NCBI GenBank assembly: GCA_038153405.1
Contig: JAYOYH010000036.1
Span: forward strand, 1 to 47,882
Reading direction: 5' to 3'
DNA length: 47,882 nt
DNA from: Gemmatimonadota bacterium
Lineage (GTDB): Bacteria; Latescibacterota; UBA2968; UBA8231
Below, piece by piece: positions 34,324 to 39,302 of the stretch. Within the stretch, counting starts at the first letter, position 1; the number at the start of each line of letters is the position of its first letter. The notes below the pieces were generated by a model. The model ran no database searches, was not told the origin of the DNA, and saw nothing but the letters and a program-made list of their open reading frames with translations. The translations under genes were made by a program, and so were the position numbers.

Positions 34324-35426
34324 GCGAGAACGTGTTGCGCGTAGGGCTTGTCGGAGTGGGCGGCGTATGCGGTGCGGTGCACTACCCGGGTTTTAGCCGC
34401 ATTCCCGGCGTAGAAATTGCCGGTCTATGCGAGCCGAGCGATGCGCTGCGCCAAGCGCGTGCTAAGGAGTGGGACATCGCGGCATCTTTTGCCGAGATCG
34501 GCGAGTTTTTAGCCGAAGTTCAGCCCGATGCCGTGGCCATTGCAACGCCCAATGTCTATCACCGCGAACTCATTTTGCAGGCGCTGGAAGCGGGGTGTCA
34601 CGTGATGTGCGAAAAGCCGCTGGGCATGGACTACGCAGAAACGCGCCTAATCTATGAGGCCGCAAAGCGCTCGGGCCTCAGGCATATGACGGCGTTTACC
34701 TATCGCTTTGTGCCGGCGCTCAACTACATTCGCCACCTGGTCCACAGCGGCGAGTTGGGGACGATTCGCCACGCGCGCTTCCAACGCCTACAGGACTGGG
34801 GCGAACGCGCAATCGGCTGGCGCCAGTACAAGGACCAGGCCGGTTCGGGCGAATTGGGCGATATGGGCATACACCGCATCGATTTTGCCGAAGATCTCCT
34901 CGGTCCCATTGTGTCGCTGTGCGCGTCGTCTAGGCAACTTGTGGCGCGCGATCAGACAACAGATGGAGCGGCATGTCGTCCACAAGACGTCGAGGACTGG
35001 GTCGCGTGGATCGTCGACTTTGCCGGCGGGACGACGGGTGTTTTTGAGATGGGTAAGCTGTCAAAGGGCTTTGGCCCCGGCGGCGATCACGACCAGGCCG
35101 AACTCAACGGCACCGAAGGCTCGGTCGTCTACCGCCTGCACGCCCCGCACGAAATTCTCTTCGGTCGGCGCGGCGAACCGTATGAGGTGCGTCCCGTTCC
35201 CGAAGCATTTCTCAAGCGACATCGTTCGCCGCGCGATCCGCACGAGGGCGATCCCGTGCGCACCTTTCGCTACGATCAGGCGTGGGAATTCGTATCGGCC
35301 ATACGCGAAGGGCGCGACTGCCAGCCTTCGTTTTTCCACGGTATGCGCGCGCAGGCCGTGGCCGATGCCGTCTTACAAGCGGCCGCCGAGCGCCGCTGGG
35401 TTGATGTGGCGGAGGTGAGTCCGTGA
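34320..35426 (+). CDS. Gfo/Idh/MocA family oxidoreductase
   Basis: GLVGVG, IATPN, HVMCEKP, GELGDMGIHRID. Confidence 0.9.
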   Translation: MSENVLRVGLVGVGGVCGAVHYPGFSRIPGVEIAGLCEPSDALRQARAKEWDIAASFAEIGEFLAEVQPDAVAIATPNVYHRELILQALEAGCHVMCEKPLGMDYAETRLIYEAAKRSGLRHMTAFTYRFVPALNYIRHLVHSGELGTIRHARFQRLQDWGERAIGWRQYKDQAGSGELGDMGIHRIDFAEDLLGPIVSLCASSRQLVARDQTTDGAACRPQDVEDWVAWIVDFAGGTTGVFEMGKLSKGFGPGGDHDQAELNGTEGSVVYRLHAPHEILFGRRGEPYEVRPVPEAFLKRHRSPRDPHEGDPVRTFRYDQAWEFVSAIREGRDCQPSFFHGMRAQAVADAVLQAAAERRWVDVAEVSP

Positions 35427-36214
35427 GCTCTGCCGCGCAGTATGAGCGTGACGGTTATTGTATCCACGCAGAGCCCGTGCTGCCGCGCGAGGTGGTCGAG
35501 CAGGCGCGCGCGGGTATGGATTCCGTGCGGCGTGGGGCCTACGACACGGGCGAGGGCCCGCAGCCGTCGCCCTGGAATCCGGGCGATGACGAGGCCGTCC
35601 TCTGTAAAATCGAGATGCCGCAGTTGGCCAGCCGGGCGATCCACGCATTGGTCAGTCATCCGGCGCTGGGCAAGTGGGCCGCCGAGGTGACCGGAGCGCA
35701 GTGGGTGCAGGTTTGGTGGGTGCAGCTGCTCTACAAGCCGCCGAGTGCTGCCGATGCGCCCAAGGTCAGTGTCGGCTGGCACCAGGATCGCCACTACTGG
35801 GGGGCCTGGGAGAACGACAGCGAGCTCTTCACGGCATGGGTCGCCCTAAGCGACGTCAACTCCGACAGTGGTCCCATGCGCTTTGTGCGGGGTTCGCACC
35901 GCTGGGGGTTGCTGCCCGGGGGCGATTTCTTTGGGCAGGATCTGAACGCGCAGCAGCGAGCCATCGCCCTGCCCAAGGAGGCTTGCTGGGAAGAGCAAGA
36001 CGCCCTGATGGCGGCCGGAGGCGCCAGCGTGCACGATTCGCTGACCTTGCACGCCAGCGGAGCCAATTCCTCTGGTCAGCCGCGCTGCAGTCTAGCCGTT
36101 CACCTGCGCAGCGACCGCTCGAATCCCCGCGAGGGGCGGCGCGAGGGATTGACCCGTTTTATTGATGACCCGCAGCGCTGTCCGATCATCTACAATGCCT
36201 CGGCTGGGCAATAG
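35423..36214 (+). CDS. Phytanoyl-CoA dioxygenase (PhyH) family 2OG-Fe(II) oxygenase
   Basis: YERDGY, WHQD (HxD), TAWVAL, GSHRW, LHASGAN...R. Confidence 0.88.
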   Translation: MSSAAQYERDGYCIHAEPVLPREVVEQARAGMDSVRRGAYDTGEGPQPSPWNPGDDEAVLCKIEMPQLASRAIHALVSHPALGKWAAEVTGAQWVQVWWVQLLYKPPSAADAPKVSVGWHQDRHYWGAWENDSELFTAWVALSDVNSDSGPMRFVRGSHRWGLLPGGDFFGQDLNAQQRAIALPKEACWEEQDALMAAGGASVHDSLTLHASGANSSGQPRCSLAVHLRSDRSNPREGRREGLTRFIDDPQRCPIIYNASAGQ

Positions 36215-36223
36215 ATCGACGGG

Positions 36224-36347
36224 TCTCATATATGATATTCACATCTCATTTTTGAGAAAATAAGCTAATTACATGGTGTGATTGAGGTTGTATTTGTCGG
36301 ATTTTTTCTGGAAAGTGATCCACAGCTAAATCGTCTCTTTTTTGAGA
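36224..36347. promoter_or_regulatory. Three palindromic TCTCA-N4-TGAGA sites (probable sigma54 enhancer/UAS)
   Basis: TCTCATATATGATA 36224-36237, TCTCATTTTTGAGA 36244-36257 (perfect), TCTCTTTTTTGAGA 36334-36347. They lie about 100-220 bp upstream of a -24/-12 promoter. Confidence 0.7.
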
Positions 36348-36354
36348 CTAACGC

Positions 36355-36393
36355 AGCGGGCCGGTTTTTATATAAACGGGCCCGCTTTATTTT
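36355..36393 (+). terminator. Rho-independent terminator of the upstream operon
   Basis: AGCGGGCCGGTTT / AAACGGGCCCGCT 13-bp stem (one mismatch) followed by TTATTTT. Confidence 0.7.
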
Positions 36394-36405
36394 ATCTAAT
36401 TGTTA
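36393..36405 (+). promoter_or_regulatory. Putative IHF site
   Basis: TATCTAATTGTTA versus WATCAANNNNTTR (one mismatch), located between the UAS and the sigma54 promoter. Confidence 0.5.
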
Positions 36406-36444
36406 ATAATGAATTTATGGCAATCTATGTAAAATGTATTAAGC

Positions 36445-36459
36445 TGGCATAGCCTTTGC
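36445..36459 (+). promoter_or_regulatory. Sigma54 (-24/-12) promoter
   Basis: TGGCATAGCCTTTGC matches TGGCAC-N5-TTGC, with GG-N10-GC spacing. Confidence 0.78.
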
Positions 36460-36493
36460 GATTGGCTTGGCATAAGGCAAAGGAGCCACCGTA

Positions 36494-36616
36494 ATGAATA
36501 CGATTAAAGACGCGCTTGAAGGACGCCCGGACCGACGCGAATGGGCACTTGATTGGGCAATTATTGCGGGCATGGTGTGCGCGATGGCGGGATTGGCCTC
36601 CGCTTTAATTTCCTAA
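36494..36616 (+). CDS. Unannotated 40-aa single-TM micropeptide
   Basis: AAGGAG RBS 8 nt before the ATG. MNTIKDALEGRPDRREWALDWAIIAGMVCAMAGLASALIS*. Immediately downstream of the sigma54 promoter. Confidence 0.65.
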   Translation: MNTIKDALEGRPDRREWALDWAIIAGMVCAMAGLASALIS

Positions 36617-36719
36617 CGCGCGGCAAAGCAGAAAGTCAAATCCGGGGTCCAAAGTGCATTGGAGTCTGCGCGGACGTCGGGTAGGAGCGGTGGTCATCCT
36701 GTTTCCCTTTGGCCTTGCG

Positions 36720-37466
36720 CTAGGCGCTGTGATCGGCGAGGAATGCGCGCAGGCAGCGCATCATATAGGGGGCATCGGGTTCGACGCTGAGAATATGTCC
36801 CGACGAGGGCAGGTAGCCGATTTTCTTGTGCTGCGCGCCGATGGCGCCCCACAGCATGGCTGCCGAATCGGGGCGCACGGTGTGCTCGCGGCGGCCCATA
36901 AATAGGCAGGTCGGCTGTCTGATGCGCGGCAGCAGGGGACGGGTCGAACGAATGAGCTGTTCGAGTTGGGCCAGTGCGCCGACGGGCATGGCTGGGTAGG
37001 TAAACAACCCGCGTTCCCTAAAATATTGCATGCTGTTTTCGCCCTTGTCGATGTCGGGCAGCATGTTTTGTAGCAGGGGAGCCAGCCAGAGAAAGCGCGT
37101 CTGCACGCGAAAGGCCGGTGCCAATAGCCCCAGACCGTCTACCTGGTCGGGACAGTCGGCGGCCAAGCGCGCAGCGATGACGCCGCCCATGGATAGGCCG
37201 ACCACAAAGACCTTTTCGCATATCCCTTGCAAGCGGTATACCTCGGCTCGTGCCGAATCGAGCCAGTCGCGCCATCCCGTTTGGCGCAGCGCGTCGAGAT
37301 GGCTTCCATGGCCGGCCAGCCGCACGCCGAGTGCGGTATAGCCGTGGCGGTATAAGTCGTCGGCGCAGGGGCGCAGTTCCGTTGGTGATGCAGTAAAGCC
37401 GTGGATGAGCAAAACACCTATAGGGCCTGCCTCGAGGAGGTAAGGTTCAGTCGACGGCGTTGGCAT
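36720..37466 (-). CDS. Alpha/beta hydrolase, carboxylesterase/monoacylglycerol lipase-like
   Basis: LLIHGFTASP, LAGHG, GLSMGG nucleophile elbow, SGH catalytic His. Confidence 0.88.
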   Translation of the reverse strand: MPTPSTEPYLLEAGPIGVLLIHGFTASPTELRPCADDLYRHGYTALGVRLAGHGSHLDALRQTGWRDWLDSARAEVYRLQGICEKVFVVGLSMGGVIAARLAADCPDQVDGLGLLAPAFRVQTRFLWLAPLLQNMLPDIDKGENSMQYFRERGLFTYPAMPVGALAQLEQLIRSTRPLLPRIRQPTCLFMGRREHTVRPDSAAMLWGAIGAQHKKIGYLPSSGHILSVEPDAPYMMRCLRAFLADHSA

Positions 37467-38976
37467 GGCGGCGTCGCTCTACTTCTCCATAGACCAAGAG
37501 CAGGGCGCAGAGGGCGATTAGCACGTCTCCGTAGCGCACGTAGGGGGTGTGTTCCGAGTGCAGGGGCACGTCCTCGACAAAGGACGTGGTCTCAAAGAGT
37601 CCGGTCATAAAGCGCACGCGTCCACTGGGTTCAATGACGCCCGAGATCCCCGTATTGGCTGCGCGCACAACGCTGCGTCCAGTCTCTACGGCGCGGGCAA
37701 TGGACATGGCAAAGTGCTGGTGGGGAGCGGACGAATGGCCGAACCAGGCATCGTTGGTCGTGTTGACCAAGAAATCAGCACCCAACTGGGTCAGTTCGCG
37801 GGTGATTTCGGGAAAGATCGATTCGTAGCAGATGAATACCCCCAATGCGGCTTGGAGGCCGGGAATGGCGATGGTGCGGTGCGACTGGCCGTGCGTGAAC
37901 TGGCCGCTCTCTGCCGTAAGGCCTTCCAAATAGCTAAAAAATGTCGGAAAGGGCAGGAATTCGCCAAAGGGGACCAGATGCACTTTGTCGGCGGTGCCGG
38001 CTGTTTCTCCGCGCGTATCGAGCATAAAGGCGCGGTTGTAGGTGGGAGCCGTGCGGTCGCCGAATTGTCCTTCCAGGCTGCCCACTAGCAGGGGAATGCC
38101 CGTCGTCTGGGGCAGGGTGCGTATGCGCTGCTGATAGGCGCTGTAGAGCGGGTCGTTAAAATAAAAGGGGAGCGCTGTCTCCGGAAAAATAATCAGATCG
38201 GGTTTGCGCTCGGCAAGCGAGAGCGCCAGTTCGGCATAGTGTTCGGTGGTCCACTCCAGGCGATTTACCTTCCACTTGCGATCCTGTGCAATATTGCCCT
38301 GTACGACGCCGATGCGCAGGCTCGGTGCAGCGGCGCTGTCTAACGCGCTGAGGCGGTGGGTGCCCCAGGCGATGACGAGAAGAACGAGGATGCTGGGCAG
38401 GAGTATATAGCGACGTAGGTCGCGGTAGTAGATGGCCTGCGCCAGCGCCGCATTAAAGAGAACCAACACAAAGCTCAGCGCGTAGACGCCGCCGACGGAG
38501 GCCAGTTGTACTACGGGTAGGTTGGCGCACTGCGAGTAGCCCAACAGCTGCCAGGGAAAGCCACTGAGCATCCAATTTTGCATCCACTCGAGCAGAGTCC
38601 AGAGGGCGGCGGCATAGAAGGCAAAGAGCGGCGAAGCAAAGGCATGGCGCGCGCAGGCCGCCATAAACAGGGCGGTGTAGCTCGCCATATAGACGATGAG
38701 CAATCCATTGGTCGGTATAGCTACAAACTGGGGTACGTTGCCGTATAGCTGCAGCGTTTCGCTTATCCAGTAGGTGCGGGCGGTGGCTGCTACAAGGCCG
38801 GCCATCCATCCGGCGGCTATGAGCTGAGAGCGGGTCGGCAGGACGAGTCGAGCCCAAAAGAGGGGGACGAGGGCGATCCAGGCCAAGTAAAAGAGATTGG
38901 CACGCGGAATACTCAGCGCGTAGAGCAGGCCGGATAAGCCGCCTAGCGCAATCCAGCGCGCCTTTTGCAGGCTCAT
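37447..38976 (-). CDS. lnt: Apolipoprotein N-acyltransferase
   Basis: GFPWQLLGYSQ, VQGNI, catalytic triad FPE / KVHLVPFGE / ICYE, TNDAWFG, RAANTGIS. Confidence 0.95.
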   Translation of the reverse strand: MSLQKARWIALGGLSGLLYALSIPRANLFYLAWIALVPLFWARLVLPTRSQLIAAGWMAGLVAATARTYWISETLQLYGNVPQFVAIPTNGLLIVYMASYTALFMAACARHAFASPLFAFYAAALWTLLEWMQNWMLSGFPWQLLGYSQCANLPVVQLASVGGVYALSFVLVLFNAALAQAIYYRDLRRYILLPSILVLLVIAWGTHRLSALDSAAAPSLRIGVVQGNIAQDRKWKVNRLEWTTEHYAELALSLAERKPDLIIFPETALPFYFNDPLYSAYQQRIRTLPQTTGIPLLVGSLEGQFGDRTAPTYNRAFMLDTRGETAGTADKVHLVPFGEFLPFPTFFSYLEGLTAESGQFTHGQSHRTIAIPGLQAALGVFICYESIFPEITRELTQLGADFLVNTTNDAWFGHSSAPHQHFAMSIARAVETGRSVVRAANTGISGVIEPSGRVRFMTGLFETTSFVEDVPLHSEHTPYVRYGDVLIALCALLLVYGEVERRRHANAVD

Positions 38977-39302
38977 TCAGCGCCGCTGTGCCAGGACGTC
39001 AGTGCACTGCGCAGCTTTTGCAAAGCGCTGGCCTCTAATTGGACGAGGTCTTCGCGCGAAATGCCCATACGCGAGGCGGCTTGTCCGGGTGATTTCTTGT
39101 GTTGGTAGCGCGATTCAATAACGCGAAATTCATCCGCGCTCAAGCTGTTCATAGCGTGGTGAACGAGCTGGCGCAGCTCCTGCCCCTCGAGCCGTTCCTG
39201 CGCATCTTCGGGAAGGAATAGCGTAATAAAGCGCTCGTCGAGGGCGACGCGTTCGGGAGGTGTCGTGGGGATATTTTCCGTGATCTTTTTGTATACAGGC
39301 AT
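38973..39302 (-). CDS. Sigma-70 region 4 (HTH)-only protein
   Basis: AMNSLSADEFRVIESRY...SPGQAASRMGISREDLVQLEASALQKLR resembles sigma region 4. No region 2. Stop overlaps the lnt start. Confidence 0.7.
   Translation of the reverse strand: MPVYKKITENIPTTPPERVALDERFITLFLPEDAQERLEGQELRQLVHHAMNSLSADEFRVIESRYQHKKSPGQAASRMGISREDLVQLEASALQKLRSALTSWHSGAE

Follow-up and report, generated by a model that had tools for sequence, protein, structure and literature searches.

The window analysed in this study is the whole of contig C36 (47,882 nt) of genome G000, a 4.86-Mb assembly that is 93% complete. Within it, a PhyH-family dioxygenase gene (35423-36214, + strand) is followed by an intergenic gap and then by a convergent alpha/beta-hydrolase (esterase) gene (36720-37466, - strand), after which comes lnt (37447-38976, - strand). 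The dioxygenase and esterase genes are syntenic neighbours of the unit described here, and the former lies upstream and outside it. The GC content of the gap was 0.38, as against 0.62-0.66 in the flanking genes; an AT-rich gap and a convergent next gene had both been recorded in the initial annotation. A 109-aa ORF whose sole match was to sigma70 region 4 was also observed directly upstream of lnt (38973-39302, - strand).

Three palindromes of the form T[AC]TCA-N4-TGA[TG]A, predicted to be upstream activator sites and carrying no strand assignment, were located at 36224-36237 (site 1), 36244-36257 (site 2), and 36334-36347 (site 3), with centres at about -214, -194, and about -104 from the -24 box, respectively. 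The initial annotation had read all three as TCTCA-N4-TGAGA; their positions and the 20-bp distance between the first two were confirmed, whereas only site 2 is perfect as written and sites 1 and 3 each contain one mismatch. Site 2 is the sole perfect TCTCA-N4-TGAGA copy across the 4.86-Mb genome, and the triple set was not reproduced in any of 3000 dinucleotide shuffles of the gap, in which the maximum was one. Downstream of the palindromes, a GC hairpin with a T-tract occupies 36355-36394 on the + strand (hairpin 36355-36386; -22.2 kcal/mol, z -4.3). None of 200 shuffles was equally stable, and the terminator scanner did not call this hairpin. Its probable role is to stop read-through coming from the PhyH-family gene upstream.

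The remaining elements, all on the + strand, were found where they had first been described: an IHF-like box with one mismatch to the IHF consensus WATCAA-N4-TTR (36393-36405), a sigma54 -24/-12 box, TGGCATAGCCTTTGC (36445-36459), with a predicted +1 near 36471, the RBS AAGGAG read from the sequence (36480-36485), and an ORF of 40 aa (36494-36616), whose product is hereafter called peptide A. Since the bare TGGCA-N6-TTGC motif occurs in 103 copies in G000, the sigma54 box by itself is little proof of a promoter, and its support comes from conservation. The genome contains rpoN (PF04552 match, E 2.6e-64), 13 strong AAA domains of the enhancer-binding protein (bEBP) type, and four IHF/HU-family genes. 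The presence of rpoN and the retention of both the ORF and the motifs in relatives, as described below, supported the original proposal of a small protein controlled by sigma54 and a bEBP.

Peptide A consists of a short helix at residues 2-9, a conserved L8/P12/R14/E16/W21 segment, and a hydrophobic helix at residues 22-40. Homologues were detected in 14 of the 76 family genomes at E<1e-6, with lengths of 39-43 aa, and 35 of 42 database homologues were exactly 40 aa long. In ten chosen pairs, pN/pS (uncorrected) ranged from 0.07 to 0.83 and was below 1 in every pair, and the differences were most frequent at third codon positions (0.62, compared with 0.50 and 0.42 at the other two). Judging from these substitution patterns, the ORF is almost certainly a coding gene. 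The structural model comprised helices at residues 2-9 and 14-39 (pLDDT 83), and the hydrophobic stretch had a KD19 of 2.1. The near-invariant columns after Met1 were L8, P12, E16, and W21, all of which fall within residues 2-21 and none in the hydrophobic part (about seven effective clusters). Residues 22-40 were free of Lys and Arg in 34 of 35 homologues. Peptide A accordingly has what is expected of a small membrane protein, namely one hydrophobic helix and a coding signature in a conserved ORF of fewer than 50 aa.

Searches beyond the family returned little. A class-wide search of 56 genomes of other families yielded two weak, unconfirmed matches, and weak peptide matches in G131, G023, G102, G052, G014, G125 (contig C83), and G025 were rejected on inspection. 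Pfam contained no family for peptide A (weak DUF matches in at most 3 of 19 members), and neither NCBIfam nor PHROGs had a matching family. The PDB sequence matches were designed TPR proteins with E of 0.047 or weaker and were discarded; the Foldseek search of the PDB with the model gave no match; and a representative-library search returned one relative and one TPR protein, the latter a chance match. In the literature covered, which left out subscription journals and bioRxiv supplements, nothing was found on this system in Latescibacter or among sigma54-linked small membrane proteins. The peptide A family is real, conserved, and apparently undescribed.

The promoter was conserved together with the peptide. 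All 13 promoters compared contained TGG[CT]A-N6-TTGC at 49-84 nt before the ATG, and their palindromic sites had the consensus T[AC]TCA-W4-TGA[TG]A, typically with two of them 20-22 bp apart and another in a proximal position. Weaker sites were observed in G013 (two mismatches) and in G043 and G019 (no clear pair); in G042 the peptide and the sites were present and the sigma54 box was degenerate. Ten of 13 promoters had an IHF-like box with at most one mismatch some 45-70 bp before the sigma54 box, counted in either orientation, against an AT-rich background, and with no shuffle control. A strong hairpin between the proximal site and the sigma54 box was seen in 5 of 16 promoters, so that the insulating terminator of the initial annotation, present in G000 as a hairpin with a T-tract, is not a general feature.

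The peptide had also been regarded as the only product of the unit. This holds for G000 but not across the family: one or two further hydrophobic ORFs of 30-40 aa, each with its own RBS, were present in 11 of the 15 cassettes that could be read, and in the cassettes read closely a terminator-like hairpin stands at the end, after these companion peptides. Peptide A occurs alone in G000, G002, G049, and G126. The companions that were searched by profile are confined to these cassettes (8 of 76 genomes), and hhalign gave a probability of 0.3 between peptide A and the companions, by which no paralogy is shown. The same promoter was recognised in G106 and in G125, where the contig ends at this point. 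In G106 (L108:900-1310) peptide A has decayed with the promoter and companions intact, which is the mirror image of G000, where A alone was kept. As a rule, the cassette is flanked by a PhyH or GFO gene on one side and by the convergent esterase/lnt gene on the other; in G013 and G043 it is found elsewhere. Because lnt and the esterase gene next to the cassette converge on it, this synteny implies no functional link.

Among the 76 family genomes, the tandem-site pattern was found at 16 places in 12 genomes, nine of them peptide loci and seven activator loci (see below), and the reversed-pattern control gave none; the pattern had been derived from those loci, and the matches in G106, G125, and G010 were new ones, each of which again fell at one or other of these two loci. 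Beyond the family the motif is no longer diagnostic: among the metagenome matches listed, 2 of 118 carried the peptide and most were unrelated. In five AT-rich metagenome contigs (L156, L170, L264, L212, and L250), the tandem palindrome was again seen, at a distance of 110-200 bp above a sigma54 box, and two of the five loci adjoin bEBPs that are more distantly related (43-52% identity in the matched part). Related motifs therefore serve other regulons.

Besides the cluster at the peptide locus, G000 contains one further cluster of the sites. A PWM was built from 32 peptide-locus sites, and its matches at C36 are circular because the three sites of G000 itself were in the training set. In G000 it scored 94 sites at 12 bits or more, among which a single cluster besides that of C36 was seen, at C2:54891, 54971, and 54991. 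In this way the genome-wide scan for a regulon suggested in the initial annotation ended at a candidate activator gene. The C2 cluster extends over the final codons of a bEBP gene and is followed by a sigma54 box, CGGTACGTCCTTTGC, and the gene for a Cys/His protein; its spacing of -218/-198/-118 is close to the -214/-194/-104 at C36. No site cluster was found at any other bEBP locus in G000. Isolated PWM sites close to other boxes, at C7, C2:113646, and C70, were not accepted as regulon members, because one lies in coding DNA and the site at a dnaK-like gene is part of a different inverted repeat.

The bEBP gene (C2:54973-57375) encodes about 800 aa with the architecture GAF-GAF-PAS-AAA-HTH_8, an intact GAFTGA motif, and a Fis-type HTH. 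Directly upstream of the Cys/His gene, this activator was present at 21 of 30 loci; among those 21, a sigma54 box was found at 19 and a site with at most one mismatch at 18. In the activator-less genomes G009, G041, G003, and G007, neither a box nor a site with at most one mismatch was found in the 450 nt upstream of the Cys/His gene (169 nt in G007). Furthermore, all 16 genomes with a cassette were among the 28 that have the activator, and in none of the 48 without it was a cassette found. This co-occurrence recurred within genera g14 (activator in 4 of 31 genomes and the cassette in all four), g18, and g1, relatives that are not independent of one another. Among the 13 bEBP-type AAA domains of G000, the C2 protein is therefore, by adjacency and co-occurrence, very probably the activator of the peptide promoter, which gives a specific candidate, on another contig, for the activator predicted to be encoded elsewhere.

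No cassette was found in 12 of the 28 activator-bearing genomes, several of which are fragmented assemblies, and at the usual locus it was absent in G001, G006, G010, G016, and G023. Judged by this distribution, the peptide cassette is an accessory output, which some activator-bearing genomes do without. The activator match was truncated in G006 (C17) and G049 (C49), with open frames of 331 and 229 aa, respectively. In G006 neither the Cys/His gene nor a cassette was found, a pattern consistent with decay of the circuit. With regard to the signal, the GAF region of the activator resembled the GAF domains of PtsP (E 4e-9) and Aquifex Nlh1 (E 1.5e-6), which hints at nutrient sensing and not at a particular ligand, and the second GAF was highly conserved. 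Against NCBIfam the activator reached no cut-off, the best model being PrdR (393 against 795).

The Cys/His protein of 133 aa is encoded at C2:54316-54714 (- strand; L047:817-1215), upstream of a tRNA-rpmG-secE-nusG cluster, and contains three C-x4-C-x8-9-C-x2-H repeats. It was detected in 31 of 132 class genomes, all in one family; a paralogue at C4:126279-126602 is without these sites. Its model had three small beta-beta-alpha modules (pLDDT 72). The protein matched the N-terminal part of the phage HNH-endonuclease family phrog_5351 (positions 8-117 of 171, E 7e-22), and 23 of 44 homologues weakly matched Zf_WRKY19. Foldseek comparison with C2H2 arrays was not significant (E 0.08 or weaker). 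From these matches, it is probably a DNA-binding protein of the zinc-finger kind that lacks a nuclease domain. A likeness to Myxococcus VegA is possible. The best reading of the two site clusters is a two-promoter regulon consisting of the peptide cassette and the Cys/His protein, as predicted from the shared sites.

In established sigma54 biology, a bEBP bound at upstream sites reaches the sigma54 holoenzyme by DNA looping and spends ATP to open the promoter. The usual targets of bEBP regulons are enzymes, transporters, or appendages. Known small membrane proteins bind and modulate partner proteins. We propose, with a probability of about 0.5 for the reading as a whole, that peptide A is a conserved, predicted single-pass membrane peptide that is controlled by sigma54 and the C2 bEBP through the three palindromes and that modulates a partner protein while anchored in the membrane. 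The C2 activator would sense a small-molecule or protein signal, bind the three upstream palindromes, and, by way of a loop assisted by IHF, make contact with the sigma54 holoenzyme; no more than two units would be switched on, namely the gene for the Cys/His protein and the peptide cassette. Peptide A would then insert with its N-terminus in the cytoplasm, an orientation suggested by the location of its charges in residues 1-21, and the L8-P12-R14-E16-W21 segment would bind a membrane protein or complex and alter its activity. For the modulator role itself, which is drawn by analogy, the odds are about even. The promoter mechanism is a textbook one, and the system is in this respect an ordinary sigma54/bEBP member; promoter opening is also covered in PMC6615313.

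What AcrZ, MgrB, MgtS, and YohP share with peptide A is a length below 50 aa, a single hydrophobic helix, the lack of a catalytic motif, and a regulated promoter of their own. Peptide A differs from the other four in its sigma54 control and in often belonging to an array of two or three dissimilar peptides, and no sequence or profile match to them was obtained. It can be placed among the small membrane proteins with a single helix (PMC11539335, PMC12648545, and PMC12719787). PspF, too, is a bEBP whose regulon has two transcription units, of which one is a gene for a small inner-membrane effector; according to PMC2763126, the units are pspABCDE and pspG, and PspG has two predicted TM helices. 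In contrast to PspF, the activator described here falls below the PspF cut-off, has GAF-GAF-PAS sensor domains, and adjoins the Cys/His protein gene and not pspA, and there is no sequence similarity to the Psp system.

The nearest known counterparts of the promoter are sigma54/bEBP promoters of the UAS-IHF-(-24/-12) type and the BldR and DioR sites of Clostridiales (PMC6615313). In these systems, multiple palindromic sites also lie 100-250 bp above a TGGCA-N6-TTGC box, the activator gene is beside one target and far from another, and the half-sites TATCA/TGATA are the same, with a spacer of 3 nt in the BldR/DioR rows against 4 nt here. Unlike in those systems, the activator here has GAF-GAF-PAS domains, and the targets are micropeptides and a zinc-finger protein instead of enzymes or transporters. 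The excerpt of PMC10018347 contained no AcoR operator sequence for comparison.

These clostridial sites bear on the identity of the activator. TATCA-N3-TGATA-like sites are assigned to several clostridial bEBPs, including BldR and DioR, in PMC6615313, and the motif class is therefore common to Fis-type HTHs, so that another of the 13 bEBPs could drive the peptide promoter while the C2 protein merely adjoins the second cluster. We consider this improbable, as the sites and the activator are lost together, the cassette was never found without a C2-type activator (0 of 48), and the other bEBP loci have no site cluster. A further possibility keeps the C2 protein as the activator and makes the peptide its regulator: peptide A would bind the GAF/PAS region and tether or inhibit the activator at the membrane, as PspA does PspF. 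Such feedback would suit the minimal regulon and the high conservation of the second GAF, and the sensor region of the activator weakly matches DhaR (E 0.003), which is a bEBP controlled by protein partners. It nevertheless seems quite unlikely, given that up to 12 of the 28 genomes keep the activator with no peptide cassette detected and that the adjacent Cys/His protein (21 of 30 loci) is its more constant companion.

Under the same regulation, peptide A might instead need no partner and act by itself within the bilayer, depolarising it or slowing growth like YohP or type I toxins and helping to bring about quiescence together with a nucleoid-binding zinc-finger protein. A short hydrophobic helix (KD19 2.1) would be suitable for this, tight sigma54 control and an insulating hairpin suit a harmful product, and YohP is reported to depolarise membranes. 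However, conservation is centred on the soluble N-terminal part and not on the helix, the helix region is devoid of Lys and Arg in nearly all homologues (34 of 35), and neither an Rfam antitoxin RNA nor a conserved 3' RNA was found, which makes this action unlikely. Sigma54-dependent sRNAs exist, and the roughly 100 nt that lie 3' of the ORF are able to fold; the alternative raised in the initial annotation, that the product is such an sRNA and the ORF incidental, is nonetheless very improbable in view of the fixed ORF length, the RBS, and the purifying selection, and it was abandoned, as the 3' tail is not conserved (no match to G002 exceeded 7 nt) and had no Rfam match. Hardly credible, finally, is a divergent Flp or type IV pilin. 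Like Flp/type IVb pilins, peptide A is short and has a hydrophobic helix after a charged leader; its D/E20-W21 bears a loose likeness to the E-Y pair of Flp, with E or D present in 25 of the 35 homologues, and the sigma54 promoters elsewhere in G000 include ones before flagellar genes. On the other hand, the G-x4-E motif was present in 0 of 35 homologues and Gly at -1 in 2 of 35, so that the Gly(-1)/Glu(+5) Flp box is missing as first noted; the helix runs to the C-terminus without a pilin head; and no processing peptidase or Tad gene was found in the 93%-complete G000, where PF01478, PF16976, and PF04964 (Peptidase_A24, RcpC, and Flp_Fap) were unmatched.

The preferred reading thus remains that of a membrane-anchored partner modulator under the C2 bEBP. 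If it is correct, a compact regulatory circuit, with its activator, motif, two promoters, and products, has been defined by sequence alone in an uncultured Latescibacterota-type lineage, and several unannotated small-protein families are added. Every part of the circuit is of a size that would allow its reconstruction in a laboratory strain. A regulon with micropeptides and a zinc-finger protein as the only detected outputs is unusual for a bEBP. In a wider and rather doubtful interpretation, the entire output of this dedicated sigma54 circuit would be a modular array of 30-40-residue membrane peptides and a stand-alone three-finger DNA-binding protein akin to the repeats of phage HNH endonucleases, and the other sigma54-driven micropeptides of G000, which have a different enhancer motif, would point to a general layer of control by peptides in which the membrane and the chromosome are remodelled together during a switch of cell state.

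In one marine RNA run, assembled contigs matched 36481-37202, 35871-36088, and a portion of the Cys/His gene with at least 99% identity, with no strand information and with DNA not excluded. These contigs mean that the sequence is present in that library and nothing more. As they are assembled contigs from one study, without strand and with DNA not excluded, the contig end at 36481 is not evidence of a start site.

Other sigma54-associated loci were also observed in these genomes. Sigma54-driven hydrophobic peptides of 38 and 32 aa are encoded in G000 on C26 (L286:906-1019, + strand) and C59 (L287:813-908, - strand), respectively, with homologues in G001 (two), G005, and, weakly, G051, and with a loose resemblance to one companion peptide. 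Their upstream motif is a different one (TGNGN-N8-[TG]CTCA by eye), which suggests another bEBP. At C2:113640-113760 of G000, a gene that we take to be dnaK-like is preceded by a sigma54 box and the inverted repeat TGTCATAA-N10-TTATGACA, suggesting chaperone expression under bEBP control. Sigma54 boxes were present as well at genes presumed to be small heat-shock-like (C86) and pspA-like (C3:35900). In G051, two short hydrophobic ORFs lie under a sigma54 box on C30 (L292), directly after a sigma-factor-like gene.
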